From the NCBI GenBank assembly GCA_015491865.1, contig WFVD01000008.1, positions 138,002 to 202,001 on the forward strand: 64,000 nucleotides of DNA, read 5' to 3'. Below the pieces are notes generated by a model. It did no database searches. It saw only the letters and a list, made by a program, of their open reading frames with translations, and was not told where the DNA came from. This document shows positions 22,408 through 58,804 of this stretch, piece after piece. The position numbers were made by a program, and so were the translations under genes. The stretch's first letter is position 1; the number at the start of each line of letters is the position of its first letter. The stretch is from Gammaproteobacteria bacterium. GTDB taxonomy: Bacteria; Pseudomonadota; Gammaproteobacteria; SZUA-140.

Positions 22408-25400
22408 ATGCCATTCAGGAACGCTATTTCACCATATGAGCAGGGTTTAAGTATGTTGGTCACGCAACAGTCACAGCGCTCACATCAGCAGCGAAATGCC
22501 ATCATCCGCTGGTTGTCTGTCGCTGTACTCGCTTTTGCTATTTCTGCTGAACCCTTCGCTGCCCCTGATATTGAAGCCGCTTTCCCCGCTGCAACCAATC
22601 TGGTCACAAACGGCCCTGTGCTGGCAAGTGCCTCGTTTGGCTCGAATAGCGGGGAGACGACAGGGCTTGGTGTCGGGCTGGATGCGGCGACCGCACTGAT
22701 TAACCCGCGCTTCCCAAAAGTGGCCGGCGGAGCCTCTAGCCAGATATACGCGGTTATTGAAGATGGCTTTGGTGGTTGGGTGATCGGGGGTGATTTCGAT
22801 ACGGTGGGCGGTGTGGCGCTAAGAAACCTCGCACATATCCAGGCCGACCTCAGTGTCAACAGTGCCTGGCGGCCCAATCCTGATGGTGTTGTCAGGGCGC
22901 TGCTGTTCCATACCGGCAGCAAGGGGCTGCGGCTGCTGGTCGGGGGGGATTTTACCCAGATCCATGGCGAGGCTCGTAGCTATTTTGCTGAGCTCCATAC
23001 CGGTTCGATATCCAAACCAGTGACCTCGCTGGATCTTTTTATAGATGCGCCGGTACATGCGATTGCCAAAGCAGATGAGACGCTGGTTTATATCGCCGGT
23101 GAGTTTACTGTTGTGCGCGGAACAGGTCCGCGAGATGATGATGGCGATGGGCATCTTGATGTCGATATTAATGGTTGGGTCAAGGTCGATATGGATGGCG
23201 ATGGCGTTTTTGAAACGTCGATGAATATTGTTGGTGATGGTGTCAATGATATTGATGTCGATGGCGATGGTGATATTGATATTGATGTGACGCTTGATGG
23301 TGTAGTGGATGCAGATATCAATGTCGATTATAGCCAGCCAGATCCAGCGCCATCATTAGATGTGCCGTTTGACCAGACCTATCCGCAGGTTTCTCGTCAA
23401 AGGATCGCCGCACTTGATCTGGATGCAGAAAGTAACGGCATGGTGGTGGATGAATGGAACCCGAATGCTGATGGTGTTGTGCGTACGATAGCGCTTGCAC
23501 CTGAGCGTAGTAAGCTCTATGTCGGCGGAGACTTTTTGAATATCTCCGTTGGTAGTGGTGCCAATATCAGTCGTCAACGCATCGCAGCATTGAATACAGC
23601 CAATAATATCAACATTATTACGACCTGGAATCCTGGTGGAGCATCAACAAATTCAATTTATGCAATGTACCTCGAAGAGTTCGGGATTGATAACGAAAGC
23701 GGTGAAGAGAACGGCCTGCTCTATGTGGGTGGTGATTTTACGGAGATAGGGGGCAAGTCACGTCAGAACTTTGCAGTACTTGATATCGCGCTGGCGGTGA
23801 ACAATGCGAATGCGTGGGATTTGCAGTTTGATGATGTTGTGCTTGCCATTGCGCGGGCAGACGAGACCTTCTTCATTGGCGGCGCGTTTAATTCGGTGAC
23901 GATAGAGGGTGTGGTGGAGAGTGACTTTAAACGCCTTGCTGCATTCAGGCGTGGCCCCGGAACATTGATTACTGCCTGGAACCCGGATGTTAATGGTGAT
24001 GTGAGTGCGCTAGCGGCCAGTGAGACTACAGGCATCGTCTATGCTGGAGGGAAGTTCAATTCTGTGGGTGACACATCGCGGCTTTACATTGGCGGCGATT
24101 TTACCTATATCGGGCCGAGTACCGGTAGCGGCGTGGTGGTGGATACCTCAGCCGGGATTGTGCAAAGCGGGTGGCCTGAGGTGAATGGTGATGTTTATGC
24201 AGCGATATCCGATGGTAGTGATGGTTGGTACATCGGCGGTAGTTTTAGTGAGATTACGGATAGTGTGTCGACCTATACCCGCAATAATGTGGCTCATATT
24301 AGTAGTGCGGGCACGGTGACCAGCTGGGATCCCAGTACGAACGGTGCTGTTCATGCGATGGCAGTGAACGGTACTTCGGTTTATATAGGAGGCGATTTCA
24401 CAACGATCGGTGGGCAGGCGAGAAACAATATTGCACTCACCGATAGCAGCGGCACGACGACCAGCTGGGATCCCGGTGCGAACGGTGTTGTTCGTACATT
24501 GGCAGTGAGTGGTACTTCTGTATACGCAGGAGGTGACTTCACGACAATCGGTGGGCAGGCGAGAAACTATGTTGCACTCATCGATAACAGCGGCACGACG
24601 ACCAGCTGGGATCCCGGTGCGAACGGTGTTGTTCGTACATTGGCGGTGAGTGGTACTTCTGTATACGCCGGGGGCGACTTCACGACAATCGGTGGGCAGG
24701 CGAGAAACCATGTTGCACTCATCGATAACAGCGGCGCGACGACCAGCTGGGATCCCGGTGCGAACGGTGTTGTTCGTACATTGGCAGTGAGTGGTACTTC
24801 TGTATACGCCGGGGGCGACTTCACGACAATCGGTGGGCAGGCGAGAAACCATGTTGCACTCATCGATAACAGCGGCGCAGCAGCGAGCTGGGACCCCAAT
24901 GCCGATGCGCCCGTTTCAGAACTCCTGTTCGATAGTGGCACCGTCTATGTCGGCGGTGATTTTAGCTTTATCGGTAGCCTATTACGTAATCGCGCGGCAG
25001 CATTTACAGTGGGTAGTAGTGTGGCAACGGCCTGGGCCCCTTCGGTTGGCAATAGCGTGCATGCGCTGTCGCCCGGTGCGGCGGGTATCTTTATTGGCGG
25101 TGCCTTCTCTTCCGTGGGTGGGGTTACACGAGAGCGAATCGCAGCCATCGATTTAAGTAGTGGTGGGCTTGATGCCAGTTTTAATGTTGGCACCAATGCA
25201 AGGATAACGACCATGCAGCTAAGCGGTGATGGCACGACACTCTATGTGGGCGGGGAGTTTACTTCCGTGGGTGGGCAGCCGCGTAACCATATCGCAGCAT
25301 TAAACACAGAGACCGGTGCAGCATACCCCTGGAACCCTGACATTAATGGTACTACATCAACAACCGCAGCATATGACATTGAACTGTCCGCAGCGGGCGA

Positions 25401-51042: not shown

Positions 51043-51483
51043 TTAATCGGTGCCCGCAATGCCTTCGGGAGCCTTCCAGCTATTAACCTTTTTAAATAAA
51101 AACTTAAGGTGTGGCCCATCGAATTTCTTATCGGTGTAGTACCAGAACTCGGAGGCACCGCTGCGGATCTTGAGCGGTTCACCAAGCAGATCACGCACAT
51201 CCTCATAATTCATGCCGACACGGAGGTGAATCCAGTTGGTTGGGTCGCTCCACTCACCGGGATTCGTCGGTGGCGGTAGTGAGCTTTTGGTTTTGATGAT
51301 GGTGGTGCGGGTCACCGTAGCCGGTTTTTTCTCAATGCTGTTGAGGCGCTGTTCCAGCTCATTGAGGCGCTGGGTGAGTTTATCGATCTGCATCTGCAGT
51401 GAACGGTCAGATGATGCCAGAGTGGGAGTGGTGAGCAACACGCTCGCCAGCAAGGCTGTGCCAAAATATGGGAATATTTTCAT
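51043..51483 (-). CDS. Secreted protein with an N-terminal coiled coil and a BamE/SmpA_OmlA-like C-terminal domain
   Basis: Signal peptide MKIFPYFGTALLASVLLTTPTLA from ATG 51483. C-terminal GMNYEDVRDLLGEPL...FWYY resembles the BamE fold motif. Confidence 0.5.
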   Translation of the reverse strand: MKIFPYFGTALLASVLLTTPTLASSDRSLQMQIDKLTQRLNELEQRLNSIEKKPATVTRTTIIKTKSSLPPPTNPGEWSDPTNWIHLRVGMNYEDVRDLLGEPLKIRSGASEFWYYTDKKFDGPHLKFLFKKVNSWKAPEGIAGTD

Positions 51484-51534
51484 CTGTCCAGCATAGTGAA
51501 ATCGTGTTGGGTGGTCAATCGGCATGCGGTGGTT

Positions 51535-51572
51535 TACAGTGTTCCGATACCCCACCATCGGAATGCTTGATA
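51535..51572 (+). CRISPR. Solitary CRISPR-repeat-like sequence; downstream arm of a 23-bp perfect inverted repeat (CCCCACCATCGGAATGCTTGATA) with imperfect extension
   Basis: Positions 51550-51572 are exactly reverse-complementary to 55168-55190. Similarity extends with indels to about 38 nt. It lies 3 nt from the stop of the cas1 stub. Only a single copy is present, so there is no array. Confidence 0.4.
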
Positions 51573-51575
51573 AAC

Positions 51576-51812
51576 TCACTTCGCTTGCAGCATCACTGAG
51601 CTAGGAGTAATCAGTACCGCTGCTCCGGCCTCAGCCAATATGCGTAATACGTTGACTGTCAGGCTGATGGTGTGGTGATGCAAACACAGTACGGCGATGT
51701 CAGCAGGTAGTACATGCGCGTCCTCATGATCCTGTCGTGCAATCCTGATGCGGCCCAAATCCACCGACAGGTGGGCGGGGTTTTCGATGAGAAGGATGCG
51801 GTTATCAGGCAT
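51576..51812 (-). pseudogene. cas1: cas1 5' fragment (first roughly 75 codons only)
   Basis: MPDNRILLIENPAHLSVDLGRIRIARQDHEDAHVLPADIAVLCLHHHTISLTVNVLRILAEAGAAVLI matches the conserved N-terminal beta-sandwich of Cas1. The start overlaps the cas9 stop (TAATG), as in type II-C operons. The ORF terminates after 78 codons, where Cas1 is normally about 300 aa. Confidence 0.6.
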
Positions 51813-54800
51813 TAGTCCACCAGTTTGAGGCGGGCAATACTTGTGCCGCCAACCACGCGCCGTCCCTGTTGTTTTTGCGACAGTTTGTGTTGTCTCATGG
51901 TTGCATCCATATCCGCGATTTCTCTCGCTTCCGTTATTGGAATGAGAAATATCTGCAGCCCCTGTTCTCTGAAGGATTTCACAATAAAGTGATCCCCGTC
52001 TTTTGTATCTTCCATCGTGTCACCCTTAAAAAATCGTCGGGTATTGGGTGGATTCGGTTGATCTTTCTTTTGCAGCGCCTCGGGTTGTGTAACCAGGCGG
52101 GGTTTCGGTTTCTCTCCAGGTGTTTCCGTTAATTCAAGATAAGCGTAACCATCGTATTGCAGGTATTTGTAGTGAGGCTTGTCAGGTGTGCTGTGGCGAC
52201 TATTGAATTCAATTTTCCAGGCGGTGTTTGCTGAGTCGCGCAACATTTTTACCTGCCGAATAACATTGCGATATCGGGGGTGCTGGATATTCGTTAATGC
52301 CTCTTTTGCAGTTTTTCCTGCTGCAATGCGTTTATCAAAAACACTTAGCACTAATCGGCGTGTGTCAGGACTGGCGATTTTCTCTAACTTTTTGCGCACA
52401 GCATCGGGTTTGCTTTTGTCGTCAGCCAGTGTTTCAAGATTCTGGCGCAGTGTAAGTTGCTGTTTGGGATCAGCATTGGGGTCTTTGTCATTTTCCACCC
52501 AGGTGACGCCATAAGCAGTGCCTTTGAACAATGACCCACCTATATGCCGCTCTGGTTTGTGGACGATGTGATGTTCACGTGTCATCTCAAGCGCCTGAGT
52601 ACGAATATCTTTTAATGGGGGATTGATGGAGAGTTTCAGTTTGATGTGTTGATCCGTTTGCGCACGTTCGCTTAAGGTCTTGTAATTGTGCGCCATCTTT
52701 TGATACAGGCCGCGGGAAGTGAGGGCGATGACTAATGCGTCAATGACGTGATGCCGATGGTCGATACGTTTTTCGATCATTTTGTCGGTGCGTTGAACGC
52801 CGCTGTGATTATTGTTGTGACCTTCCCAGTAGGGTTTGTATTTTTTAAATTCTTCTTCATTAATCAGGTTTTTTTCGGTATCAAAAACGGGCAGGCCAGA
52901 CTCGTAACGAATTTCCGGGATAACGGTATTTAGCCCCCATATTTTTCTCAGGTGCGCGGTCATTGCACCGCGGCTGACCGCAACATCGGAACAGACCGTA
53001 CGCATCCACTGTGCCGCCAGTTTGGAAATCCACGAGGTTTCGTGATACTGACGATTGGTGAAATCGTCGATGATGTCACTGTTGATTTTCTCTGCTTTCC
53101 AGTCTTGCAGGGTGAGAAAACGTGCTTTGGCAAAGCGTCGTTTCTTTTCCAGCGCTTTGGCTCGTTCGGTGATAATTTTCCATTTGTTAATGTCATCACC
53201 CCCGGCTTGCCAGGGGGTGCGGTTTCCCTTTTCATCATTACAGGAACGGTGTGATAGCATGAGGTGGTCTTGTTGGCGGCCAACGCGGGTGAGGGTACGC
53301 GGAATGATATGTTCCAGATTGGTTTCGTTGCCATCCACTGCTGCGCCGAGACTGATCCTTCGTTCACAGTAGGGGCAATTGGTATCCTGTTCCTGCCACA
53401 GCCGCCAGCGGAAGATATTAGTGGAGGTTGCGGGATGGCTGTTTTTCTCCAGGTCTTCCCTGGCCTTTTTGCGTTCGCGTTGATTTTTATCTATGCCTTT
53501 TTCAATTTCACCGCGGCGTTTTAATCCCAACCCCATGTCACGACTAAGCTCGATGACCACTTCCGCAGGTGGCTCGCCACCCATGGCATCAATAGCATTG
53601 TTGACGGCGTAGCGCATTTGGCGCAGGGCAACATCAACCACGATGTTGCCGGTAGGTCAATGGGAATCAAGATGTGTGGATAGTTCAGCTTTTTCTTCAG
53701 GTTTTGGATGACAGGCTAAGATGGCGTCGTATTCATCCATGCCTCCGCGCATTTTTTCCGTGAGTTTTTTAATGCCTTGATGGAATAGGCGCTACGTCCA
53801 CTATCGAATCCCATTTTACTGAGGCGGTCAAATTTGCCGCTGGTAACCATGGCGTTAATGAAGTTCACCATGTCAGGAGAAAATTTACGTAATTCCCCAG
53901 GTTTTCCATCTTTGCCTTTACCGCGATACTGGAGATGCCAGTCTTTACGATCCACTTCCTGTGGTGACCCCAGGTCAGCAAGAAAGTTGATGATGCTGAT
54001 TTGTGTGCCTTCGTTGAGTGCCAGCCATTGTTCGGCAAGCCCTAATTTTCCCACCGCTTTCAGAGTGCTGTTGCCTTTGAGTTCAGGTCGGCTGGGCCGG
54101 TCAAAATTAAGTCCGCGTTTGTCTGGATTTGGGCAGCCTGCTTTATTTAGTGCCGTGTTAATTTGCAAGAAAGTTGCTTTCTCTTTTGTCGAGAGCAACT
54201 TGCGGATAACGGTTTTTTGCTCTGGTGTAAGTTGTTGGGAACGACGCCCCATGCCCCAACGCAAATCGGCAATCTGTTTTTCAATGCGAAACGCTTGTGC
54301 GGCGGGTTGACTCATGGGGGCCCGCGGCAGATTGGGTTCCAATGGACATTGCCCCACCATCGCAGTAACGGATTTCAGTGGCCGCTGGTAAAAGATAACG
54401 TCGCGGAAAACCTCTTTGAGTGGATTGTCTTTGTATCGCTCATTCAGGCCTTCGTATAGCCCATTCAGAATTGAATGAGTCACTGACTGCACTTTCCAGA
54501 TTTGTTCAAACTCGGCTTCCACCATTTCCCGGCTGACGTACAGGCCATGGGGTTTTGCTTCTTTCAGCTTGAGGGTTTCGCCGTTGTTGAAACGGTGCAG
54601 CAGGTATTGCCCAAGCCACTCACCATTCGCATCCTGCATTAGTTGTTTGAGCTGAGTGATGCCGCCTTCAACCTGGCCTTCATCGCCTTCTTTACTTAAC
54701 CTGAAAGCCTCCCGCATAACCACGCCGTTTGGACATTCGAAAAAATACCCTGGCCAGATCATCCAGCGCAATGGGTTTTGTGGTTGCTTGGCTGCGGGCC

Positions 54801-55105
54801 TCATGAAGACGTCGGCCGTTATCAGGGGTGATAGTCTGAGGGTCAATGTCGAGTAGTTCACAGATGGCCGCAAGATCATGTAAACGGCTGGCGCGGCGGT
54901 CGATCAGTCGTCGGGTACGTCGGGCCATGCCCCGGCCAGATGCCTTGGTGCTACCAATACCACCTCCGGTAGCAGCTTCTACCGGCTCCTGAAAGATATG
55001 CGCGCTGTGATAGGCGATATTTTCGGGCGTGGATTCGTTGTCCAGTGTGATACAGGCAAGACCAACCGATGCGGTGCCAAAATCAATCCCCAGTCGATAA
55101 GGCAT
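51812..55105 (-). pseudogene. cas9: Type II-C cas9, full-length footprint (about 1098 codons) but disrupted by two frameshifts and one in-frame TGA
   Basis: Three collinear ORF fragments. Fragment 55105-54692 carries RuvC-I (YRLGIDFGTASVGLA), the Arg-rich bridge helix (ARRTRRLIDRRASRL) and the RGY motif. Fragment 54879-53716 is the REC lobe. Fragment 53641-51812 carries RuvC-II (VVIELSRD), HNH (CPYCERR...LEHIIP...SCNDEKGNRTP), RuvC-III (HRHHVIDALVIA) and the PI domain. See findings for the exact lesions. Confidence 0.8.
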
Positions 55106-55167
55106 TTTTTCTCTCCATGATTTATTGTGCTTGCCATTACACCACATGGTTGCTAGGGTTTTCCTGT

Positions 55168-55251
55168 ATCAAGCATTCCGATGGTGGGGACTATCGGTAA
55201 CAAGTGTTTATCACACCGATACAGAACGGCTGCTTCGGCAGTCGTTTTTTT
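55168..55251 (+). ncRNA. Candidate tracrRNA: anti-repeat (upstream arm of the inverted repeat), then a linker and a strong intrinsic terminator
   Basis: 55168-55190 is the reverse complement of 51550-51572 (extended pairing to about 55208). The terminator at 55226-55251 has an 8-bp stem ACGGCTGC/GCAGTCGT with a UUCG tetraloop followed by T7. It lies 63 nt upstream of cas9 and is divergent from it. Confidence 0.45.
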
Positions 55252-56234
55252 ATGATTGAATATTGTGTACACCGCTTGCCGAATCAAGTTCTTTCATTGA
55301 TTTTAGGGAGTCTGATTCTGCGTGCAAATGTGTTTTTCAGCGTTGTGCTGGGTGGAATCTTTAGCTAGAATCCGGTCTGTTTGTTAATAAGTGGATTCAA
55401 TGCTTTTTACAACATACAAGGCGGCAGATGCTCTCCTGGTGGCAATCAAGCCGACCTGATGACCTTCCCATTCCATGCGGATATATTTTCCTACGAAACA
55501 CCAGTTGAATTTTGTTGTCTGAGATACCGCTAGGCGGTGAGGGGCATCGATGAGATTATCGACCCTTCTTTGAATAAATACCGGTAAACAGTCGCTAAAA
55601 AATGATGGCGTGCCAGGATGGCAGAAGGCAATTTGATGCGGTTATTTTAGGGCTGCCTTATACTGCAATTCATTGGTAGCAGATCTGGTGGTGAAATATG
55701 GGCGAGCTATATTGATCTCACCGATTGCTCTGAACCGATTTTGAAATACGAGTATGAACGGCAGTTAAATACCCATCTAAGTTAGTCAATAATAACCATA
55801 TAAAAAGTAGTTGATTTATAGTGGGTGATCCTCTAGACTCTTTATCGCACGACAGACATTCCATGCATCTCCTCCTCTCTCGGGGTCGAGTGATTCGGCC
55901 CCGGGCGGTGCAAGGGATGGTGATTGACCGGCACTCCCGGCTGTGATGAGCATCAGGTTATTGGTTATGGATTATCGATGCCTGGGCTTTACCCCCCCTG
56001 CGCAGCCGGGATGTGTCAAATTTCTACGGTTAACTATAAAACACTAATCCCCGCCTGTATTTTTGTTGCCTTCCCTCTTTGTGAGCAATGCGCGATGGAC
56101 TGGAGCGCCAGGTTCTTCAGGGCGGCAACCTCGACGTGAGATGAATCAATGAGTTAAGTGATGATGTCGCTGCTTCACGCCTCGTCATGAGAATAAATCA
56201 GAGGTTGCTTAGTAACGTAGCTGACGCTCAGATG

Positions 56235-58120: not shown

Positions 58121-58804
58121 ATGCATCTAGTCATTCTTCTATTGCTCCTTCTCGCGCTGCTGTTTGGTCCGCAGCTCTGGGCGCGATCGGTGCTCTCTCG
58201 TCACAGCAAGCCGCAGGATCACTTCCCCGGTAATGGCGAAGCGTTTGCGCGACACCTGCTCAATAGGGCGGGGCTGGAAAAGGTAGCGGTTGAGCAGACG
58301 GCGCTCGGTGATCACTACGATCCGGCCGATCGCTGCGTGCGCCTTAGTGAGGCTAACTTCACTGGCAAGTCACTCACCGCCGTTGCGGTTGCGGCCCATG
58401 AAGTGGGCCATGCGATTCAGCACCGCGACGACGACCCCAGGCTGGCGCTGCGTGCCAGGCTGGTGAAGGTCGCTCAGGTGACGGAGAAGATGGGGTCAAT
58501 GGCGATGTTTGCAGTGCCGGTGCTGGTCGGTTTTACGCGTGCACCGTCGGTGGGGGTGTTGATGTTTGTGGTTGGTCTGATTAGCCTTGGTGTTTCTGCG
58601 CTGGTGCATCTGGTGACGCTGCCGGTGGAGTGGGATGCCAGCTTCGGCAAGGCGATGCCGATGATTAAGGCAGGGCAGTACCTGACACAGGCCGAAGAGC
58701 TGGTAGCGAAAAAGATCCTGCGTGCCTGCGCACTCACCTATCTGGCTGCGTCGTTATCGAGCCTGCTCAATATCTGGCGCTGGATACGTTTCATCCGTCG
58801 CTGA
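58121..58804 (+). CDS. Membrane zinc metallopeptidase (HExxH, Zn_peptidase_2/PF04298-like)
   Basis: AAHEVGHAIQH motif. There is an N-terminal TM helix, and C-terminal TM helices and an amphipathic tail. About 227 aa, as in the family. Confidence 0.7.
   Translation: MHLVILLLLLLALLFGPQLWARSVLSRHSKPQDHFPGNGEAFARHLLNRAGLEKVAVEQTALGDHYDPADRCVRLSEANFTGKSLTAVAVAAHEVGHAIQHRDDDPRLALRARLVKVAQVTEKMGSMAMFAVPVLVGFTRAPSVGVLMFVVGLISLGVSALVHLVTLPVEWDASFGKAMPMIKAGQYLTQAEELVAKKILRACALTYLAASLSSLLNIWRWIRFIRR

Follow-up and report, generated by a model that had tools for sequence, protein, structure and literature searches.

Organization of the locus

Here, we analysed a 64-kb stretch of DNA (64,000 nucleotides of contig WFVD01000008.1, assembly GCA_015491865.1; hereafter the window) from a gammaproteobacterium. 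It contains the broken pieces of a cas9 gene, followed on the same strand by the beginning of cas1, a putative spacer and one repeat of the clustered regularly interspaced short palindromic repeat (CRISPR) type, with a candidate gene for the trans-activating CRISPR RNA (tracrRNA) on the opposite strand upstream of cas9 (Table 1). It is very likely that the region from 51521 to 55755 is a genuine pseudogenised type II-C CRISPR-Cas locus that died recently in an uncultured hydrothermal-vent organism. The cluster names of the neighbouring genes point to a Thiotrichaceae/Chromatiales-like host.

The cas9 reading starts in frame 0 with an ATG at 55105, preceded by GGAGAG, and reads MPYRLGIDFG...RRGYAGGFQVK* up to a TAA at 54694-54692. 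The REC lobe lies in frame 1 (KEGDEGQVEGG...SAYSIKALK), which then runs on as NSRKKCAEAW...* and ends at 53716. The reading is taken up again in frame 0 with KLTEKMRGGMDEYDAI...STHLDSH, meets the TGA at 53659-53657, and continues as PTGNIVVDVALRQ... via the HNH and RuvC-III domains to the stop at 51812. Pfam matches in these pieces comprised Cas9_a, HNH_4 and RuvC_III, and protein searches returned full-length Cas9 homologues of 1073 aa (68% identity, E about 1e-275). Considering that the E-values ranged overall from 0 to 1e-270 and that the repaired coding sequence is colinear with the homologues, the cas9 features could not have arisen by chance.

When the three interrupted sites were repaired, a coding sequence of 3294 nt was obtained, whose 1097-aa product aligns end to end with the 1073-aa Cas9 proteins and shows the RuvC-I, bridge helix, REC, RuvC-II, HNH and RuvC-III architecture. 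The catalytic residues are kept at invariant columns, including D8 (GIDFGTAS), E519 (VIELSRD), H599 (NLEHIIP) and D782/H783-H786/D789 (DHRHHVIDAL). The best matches among solved structures were GeoCas9 and Nme1/Nme2 Cas9, and the repaired protein was thus classified as type II-C, although the solved Cas9s share little protein identity with it (E about 1e-29, over the N-terminal two thirds). A single uninterrupted open reading frame (ORF) for the whole protein is found neither in the window, with its two frameshifts and one TGA, nor in any of 12 related assemblies; therefore, we assigned the gene to the Cas9 pseudogenes and not to the functional members of the family.

In addition to the 21-nt tandem duplication listed in Table 1, two more in-frame insertions relative to the homologues were observed, of about 15 and 30 nt (approximately 5 and 10 aa), near repaired residues 396-400 and 1065-1074. 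All three insertions (about 21, 15 and 30 nt) probably predate the inactivation.

Table 1. Features of the degenerate locus, with positions in the window (+ and -, strand; a point, no strand).
Feature	Position	Strand	Description
CRISPR-Cas island	51521..55755	.	Flanked by homology to the CRISPR-free sister lineage L022, which stops at 55755 and begins again at 51520
Candidate tracrRNA gene	55163..55255	+	Antisense to and upstream of cas9; 39-nt anti-repeat, then intrinsic terminator
cas9 pseudogene (type II-C)	51812..55105	-	Three reading-frame segments; 1097 aa when repaired
ORF fragment 1 (137 aa)	54695..55105	-	RuvC-I, arginine-rich bridge helix, start of REC
Lesion 1	54692..54697	-	1-nt insertion (T54694) between AAG and AAA; makes the TAA stop, moves the REC lobe out of frame
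ORF fragment 2 (333 aa)	53716..54717	-	REC lobe, Pfam Cas9_a; called in related assemblies from an ATG that lies out of frame within the RRGYAGG codons
Tandem duplication (21 nt, in-frame)	54429..54468	-	REC lobe; 7-aa insertion (..LNGLYEGLN..) absent from all relatives
Lesion 2	53765..53770	-	A6 run (gene sense), expected A7 (TTA AAA AAA CTC, LKKL); the 1-nt deletion returns reading to the original frame
Lesion 3	53657..53659	-	In-frame TGA from CGA (Arg), codon 483; polymorphic; AAA (Lys) in more distant relatives
ORF fragment 3	51812..53641	-	RuvC-II, HNH, RuvC-III, C-terminal domains; 609 aa from GTG, 601 aa from ATG
cas1 stub	51607..51812	-	Beginning of the gene (~69 codons), with homology to Cas1 (301 aa) of intact relatives
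Putative spacer (30 nt)	51577..51606	-	Between cas1 breakpoint and repeat; same length as spacers of related arrays
Solitary CRISPR repeat (36 nt)	51541..51576	-	AGTTTATCAAGCATTCCGATGGTGGGGTATCGGAAC; perfect, identical to the repeat of intact relative L016

Three lesions in cas9

To characterize the lesions, we used two groups of sequences. The comparison set consisted of 12 other assemblies that were 99.8-99.95% identical to the window over the locus and came from different vent samples and different pipelines. They were found by exact-sequence look-ups of cas9 fragments and were then all aligned, and included five metagenome-assembled genomes (MAGs) from NCBI (GCA_027059735.1, GCA_015494135.1, GCA_027078115.1, GCA_015492695.1 and GCA_027056645.1), four ENA metagenome scaffolds (REYS20-1, SAMN122393xx) and three Logan contigs (SRR10312498, SRR10312500 and SRR10312503). 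Within this set the site of lesion 1 is covered by 11 assemblies, the sites of lesions 2 and 3 by 10, and the cas1 truncation by 9. Codon-level mapping was based on intact relatives that were 68-81% identical; L017, the single relative returned by a scan of GTDB representatives, is the closest (81%), and P0002-P0004 show 68-69%. The two frameshift sites read GTTAAGTAAAGAA and TTAAAAAACTC.

At lesion 1 the window has GTT AAG [T] AAA GAA GGC, where relatives have GTC AAA AAG GAx GGx (V K K D/E G; the intact relatives read ...RRGYAGGFKVKKEGDEGQ). Homology in frame 0 extends to AAG (54697-54695) and homology in frame 1 begins with AAA (54693), and therefore the lesion is an insertion of T54694. 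The original prediction had correctly recognized the stop at 54692 after RRGY; however, it had placed the indel in GGGAGGCTTTCAGG, at 54700-54735, and since homology in the old frame persists through AGGFQVK, there is no indel inside that segment.

The corresponding codons of L017 at lesion 2 are CTC AAA AAA CTC ACG, which, with the TTA leucine codon of the window, gives an ancestral tract of A7. Homology changes frame between ALK and KLTEKM, so the lesion must lie in the run given in Table 1. A change from seven to six nucleotides had already been proposed and is directly supported by one related assembly, L008, in which A7 is still present. The proposed site of 53755-53760 could not be maintained: T6 runs occur at 53752-53757 and 53765-53770, and none at that position. 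For the nonsense codon, on the other hand, the predicted position of 53657-53659 proved to be exact, and seven related assemblies have CGA at the same codon. ORF fragment 3 is 646 aa long in these CGA alleles.

Variation among related assemblies

Each of the 11 other assemblies with coverage of lesion 1 has the inserted T, and the cas1 truncation is shared by all nine that extend across it. The run at lesion 2 is A6 in 9 of the 10 covering assemblies, L008 being the only one with A7. Codon 483 divides the assemblies into two haplogroups, one with TGA (L003, L008, L009 and the window) and one with CGA (L001, L002, L004-L007 and L010; 7 of 10), with TGA linked to G at both 53650 and 53203. By comparison with the alignment of homologues, conserved residues have undergone derived changes in each haplogroup: the arginine-to-stop change and W->G in WQAWG in the TGA haplogroup, and G->S in TGNIVV in the CGA haplogroup. 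Additional decay was observed in single assemblies, with a 187-nt deletion in the REC segment of L006 and a 12-nt deletion in the N-terminal piece of variant P0127.

Single-nucleotide polymorphisms (SNPs) among these assemblies comprised nine nonsynonymous or nonsense changes to one synonymous change in cas9 and the cas1 stub, compared with two to eight in the flanking genes (Fisher two-sided p=0.0055). This indicates that the cas remnants are under relaxed constraint. The tally leaves out the terminal mismatches of contig L010 (JALUKF010000028.1), whose last 90 nt (window 58585-58665) differ from all other assemblies by 11 clustered mismatches including a stop; these look like a chimeric or low-quality contig end.

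One synonymous SNP (T/C at 52469) was common to L007 of the CGA haplogroup and L008 of the TGA haplogroup. This sharing could be due to recombination between the haplogroups, homoplasy or a mixed-strain MAG consensus.

Remains of cas1, the array and the tracrRNA gene

The intact relatives have the order cas9 (1073 aa), cas1 (301 aa), cas2 (110 aa) and array, with 36-nt repeats AGTTTATCAA[A/G]CATTCCGATGGTGGGGTATCGGAAC and 30-nt spacers. In the window, homology to Cas1 ends at ...CTGATTAC (position 51607). The ORF called for the stub is 78 aa long and terminates with a TGA at 51576-51578, the last base of which is the first base of the repeat. No cas2 is present in the window, and its cas gene content beside the cas9 pieces is limited to the 69-codon cas1 stub. 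The 30 nt between the cas1 breakpoint and the repeat have the length of the related spacers, and so are probably the last surviving spacer. Since this segment had no second match in the window, and its 29-nt core no exact match in viral contigs, its identity as a spacer is argued from length and position.

The solitary repeat was recognized only once the repeat of the intact relatives was in hand. It occurs once within the 64-kb window, whereas the intact relatives L013 and L016 have 8-11 or more repeats. No CRISPR array emerged when the window was searched for repeats and tandem repeats, and thus not the adjacent array expected of a type II-C locus. Chromosomal homology to the sister lineage resumes 21 nt past the repeat, at 51520.

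The mechanical ORF list starts the neighbouring BamE-like lipoprotein gene (51043-51579, minus strand) at a GTG inside the CRISPR repeat. In reality the gene almost certainly begins with the ATG at 51483 (MKIFPYFGTALLAS...), in agreement with the 146 aa called in related MAGs. Just within the conserved flank, at 51518-51490, a match to a sigma-70-like promoter was observed.

Upstream of cas9, a segment on the plus strand has the two parts that define a tracrRNA, an anti-repeat complementary to the repeat and a terminator behind it. The 39-nt anti-repeat (55163-55201) pairs with the repeat except for two small bulges, and is followed by a strong intrinsic terminator (55223-55248) with a T-run. 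The predicted cofold of anti-repeat and repeat has an energy of -72.6 kcal/mol, whereas this repeat strand gives -32.4 with a candidate on the minus (cas9-sense) strand; pairing on the reverse strand reaches -63.5, but in that direction no terminator follows the anti-repeat. The block is almost invariant and occupies the same position in three intact loci, with compensatory changes in the terminator stem. No Rfam family matched at gathering thresholds in the whole window or at E<=1 in 51400-55800, and the candidate is therefore based on anti-repeat, terminator and conservation, with no support from a curated family. Judged from these features, a tracrRNA gene of the usual layout is apparently intact. 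Its orientation would imply that array and tracrRNA were transcribed opposite to the cas operon.

Possible course and age of the inactivation

Based on these observations, we propose the following course of decay. The ancestral state would have been a cas9-cas1-cas2-array cassette with a divergent upstream tracrRNA gene, residing in a variable interval between a phosphoribulokinase gene and the BamE-like gene. The insertion of one T at cas9 codon 138 would have created the TAA, and at codon ~447 the A7 run would have been shortened by one nucleotide. Most of cas1, the whole of cas2 and every spacer-repeat unit except the last may then have been lost in a single deletion that extended from cas1 codon ~70 through the penultimate repeat. 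It is possible that this deletion occurred via an 'AC' microhomology, as both of its edges end in AC. The change from CGA to TGA at codon 483 would have been added in one haplogroup, the window's own.

The inactivation is recent relative to the divergence from the intact orthologues, because no catalytic residue has been lost, the REC frame remains open over 333 codons and few changes are specific to the window (five at otherwise invariant Cas9 columns, versus two to three in close intact relatives). Nevertheless, it predates the coalescence of the sampled population, as no related assembly covering lesion 1 or the deletion lacks it.

Alternative explanations

The alternatives considered (ALTERNATIVES) were sequencing error, phase variation, programmed recoding, and split Cas9 or co-option. 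That the lesions are sequencing or assembly errors in a cas9 that is really intact and functional might be suspected from the fact that lesion 2 lies in a homopolymer, with A7 and not A6 in L008, and from the metagenomic origin of all the assemblies. However, lesion 1 lies outside any homopolymer and is identical in every covering assembly despite varied samples and pipelines; the TGA is a substitution that forms a consistent haplotype with two other SNPs; and the cas1 truncation and array loss are structural changes common to the assemblies. Moreover, the genes on either side are free of frameshifts, have their full length and are syntenic with sister lineages, which shows that errors are not a general feature of the assembly. 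The same broken gene in assemblies of such different origin therefore excludes sequencing error, and we regard an intact gene behind these lesions as almost inconceivable. The original prediction that the nonsense codon reflects genuine pseudogenisation and not a sequencing artefact was thus borne out by the occurrence of lesion 1 in 11 of 11 assemblies and by the nonsynonymous-to-synonymous ratios of 9:1 in cas and 2:8 in the flanks. An allele continuous at all three sites, which would have meant a functional gene, was present in none of the 12 assemblies compared. The alternative label that had been offered for such a case, an orphan cas9, is also wrong, as the locus retains part of cas1, a single spacer-repeat unit and the tracrRNA gene.

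Expression of full-length Cas9, at a low or switchable level, by recoding or phase variation would require ribosomal slippage by -1 or a switch of tract length at A_AAA_AAC, together with a +1 shift at AAG-UAA and readthrough of UGA. The sequence tt-A-AAA-AAC in the frame of fragment 2 is formally an X_XXY_YYZ slippery heptamer, and a -1 slip on it would give exactly ALKKLTEKM. On the other hand, a search for a stimulatory structure downstream of the heptamer found none (z=+0.48), and the codon sequence AAG-UAA-A would allow no +1 re-pairing of tRNA-Lys (AGU), which leaves lesion 1 without a shift-prone codon. The ORFs of the intact relatives are ordinary and uninterrupted at both frameshift sites, so the interruptions are not a conserved feature, and the locus lacks the combination of slippery site and stimulator, conserved in orthologues, that marks programmed frameshifting. 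The original prediction had also suggested a slipped-strand switch at the homopolymer. The A6/A7 length polymorphism does exist; however, in L008 the A7 allele is interrupted by lesion 1 and the TGA all the same. This leaves no ON state, and the tract does not toggle between an intact and a broken ORF. Without array, cas1 and cas2 there would also be nothing for Cas9 to work with, and the ratio of nonsynonymous to synonymous changes further argues against retained expression, which we consider extremely improbable.

It might also be supposed that the remnants have been co-opted, either as a natural split Cas9 whose 137-, 333- and 646-aa pieces assemble on the tracrRNA, or with the tracrRNA and solitary repeat serving as regulatory RNAs. 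Engineered split Cas9 enzymes do reassemble on guide RNA. In the CGA alleles, the three ORFs have overlaps of 26-37 nt and all begin with an ATG; no catalytic residue has been lost, and neither tracrRNA nor repeat shows damage. Split points at the boundaries of the REC lobe were looked for and rejected: alignment to GeoCas9 and NmeCas9 places both breaks ~45 residues inside the lobe. In the haplogroup of the window the stop removes the N-terminus of the third piece, the second piece has lost 187 nt in L006 and the first 12 nt in P0127, and the SNP ratio gives no sign of purifying selection. As for a regulatory RNA, the solitary repeat has no partner repeat downstream in its presumed direction of transcription. 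Co-option is thus very unlikely. The more specific possibility that the ORFs of the CGA alleles form a split Cas9 and the tracrRNA is kept for non-immune, tracrRNA-guided binding or regulation, or else that recoding at A_AAA_AAC yields a trickle of Cas9, appears extremely unlikely.

Several points nevertheless weigh against a dead locus. All relatives are metagenome assemblies, and a MAG consensus can mix strains, as SNP 52469 illustrates. The CGA-allele ORFs overlap, with an ATG near each previous stop, so that, in principle, translation could yield separate polypeptides. Neither the tracrRNA gene nor the repeat shows any flaw, although recent decay would equally lead one to expect this. Finally, the repeat count spans the 64-kb window, and an array of the same repeat may exist elsewhere in the genome. 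With respect to the pseudogenised locus itself, full-length Cas9 cannot be made, the genes for spacer acquisition are gone and so is the array for CRISPR RNA. Therefore, the locus is without immune function and drifting neutrally.

Comparison with known systems

The window resembles the type II-C systems of the Neisseria meningitidis, Campylobacter jejuni and Geobacillus Cas9 type in the size of Cas9 (~1,070-1,100 aa) and in domain order, as well as in having an anti-repeat upstream of cas9, which is one typical tracrRNA position. Its intact relatives likewise have 36-nt repeats and 30-nt spacers. The assignment of the window locus to type II-C, a subtype with neither csn2 nor cas4, is by orthology, the intact relatives having exactly cas9-cas1-cas2. 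Transcription of array and tracrRNA opposite to the cas operon has been shown experimentally in N. meningitidis and C. jejuni (PMC3737331), and the orientation in the window, read from sequence, is apparently alike. Unlike these systems, the window has a cas9 split by two frameshifts and a nonsense codon, a 69-codon stub of cas1, no cas2, and one spacer and one repeat. The intact orthologues from uncultured Chromatiaceae and metagenomes (L017 and P0002-P0004) are colinear over the full length and share the repeat and the upstream tracrRNA block; they differ in their uninterrupted genes, full cas1 and cas2 (the L017 contig ends at cas2) and other genomic contexts.

Degenerate CRISPR-Cas loci are common, and the locus shares with them frameshift, nonsense and deletion as well as residual repeats and cas fragments. 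What differs is that about a dozen near-identical environmental assemblies record both fixed and still-segregating lesions. Phase-variable simple-sequence contingency genes are similar in having a homopolymeric A tract within an ORF, A6 or A7 among strains. However, no allele here is intact, the tract is short and lesion 1 is in every covering assembly, so length switching cannot restore function.

A pseudogenised type II-C locus is nothing new in kind; it is ordinary biology and no challenge to current understanding. With regard to annotation, three ORFs named HNH endonuclease or hypothetical in about a dozen public MAGs are pieces of one dead cas9, and the host lineage should not be counted as having CRISPR-Cas9 immunity. 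Truncated Cas9 sequences are routinely discarded in surveys (PMC3737331). The locus is also a small natural record of stepwise type II-C decay, in which a frameshift and a cas1-to-array deletion are universal among covering assemblies; on top of them the nonsense codon, the length of the homopolymer and additional deletions are segregating, while the tracrRNA gene and one spacer-repeat unit remain. The repaired 1097-aa sequence, together with repeat and tracrRNA, could serve as a reconstructable Cas9 orthologue.

Genomic context

The break in homology to L022 between 55755 and 51520 shows the remnant to be a ~4.2-kb island in a variable hotspot. The flanks common to the window and L022 contain genes for a DUF2846 protein and phosphoribulokinase on one side, and BamE-like, SLC13 and DHquinase genes on the other. 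In place of the CRISPR region, L022 has genes for an aldehyde dehydrogenase, a saccharopine dehydrogenase and a protein of 391 aa (L022:5299-9501), and other relatives (L018/L019) have yet different genes in the interval between the phosphoribulokinase and BamE-like genes. Two kinds of neighbourhood were observed for intact cassettes elsewhere: that of L013/L014 (L013:1450-4701) adjoins an integrase and a TraI relaxase, and that of L016 (L016:1-5747) a phage-tail-like, contractile-injection gene cluster. These neighbours are consistent with horizontal mobility and suggest that the type II-C cassette travels on mobile elements; the window's own cassette may have been acquired in this way.

A 37-nt sequence at 55740-55776 (minus strand ATGGGTATTTAACTGCCGTTCATACTCGTATTTCAAA) coincides with the left edge of the island. 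It is present as one copy in the window, L006, L007 and L010, and as two tandem copies in L001, L004 and L011. At the same site, N-gaps flanked by identical sequence occur in L003, L004 and L005 (55 nt in L004), and the contigs of L008, L009 and L012 start. A collapsed CRISPR array was considered and rejected, as the sequence is unlike the CRISPR repeat of this family; probably, either a tandem duplication is polymorphic here or strains branch at this boundary of the island. Farther away in the window, four tandem copies of a 141-nt unit with 92% identity were found at 24310-24876, with 24-30-nt repeats nearby (23217-23302). The tandem copies probably belong to a gene for a repeat-containing surface protein, unrelated to the decay of cas9.

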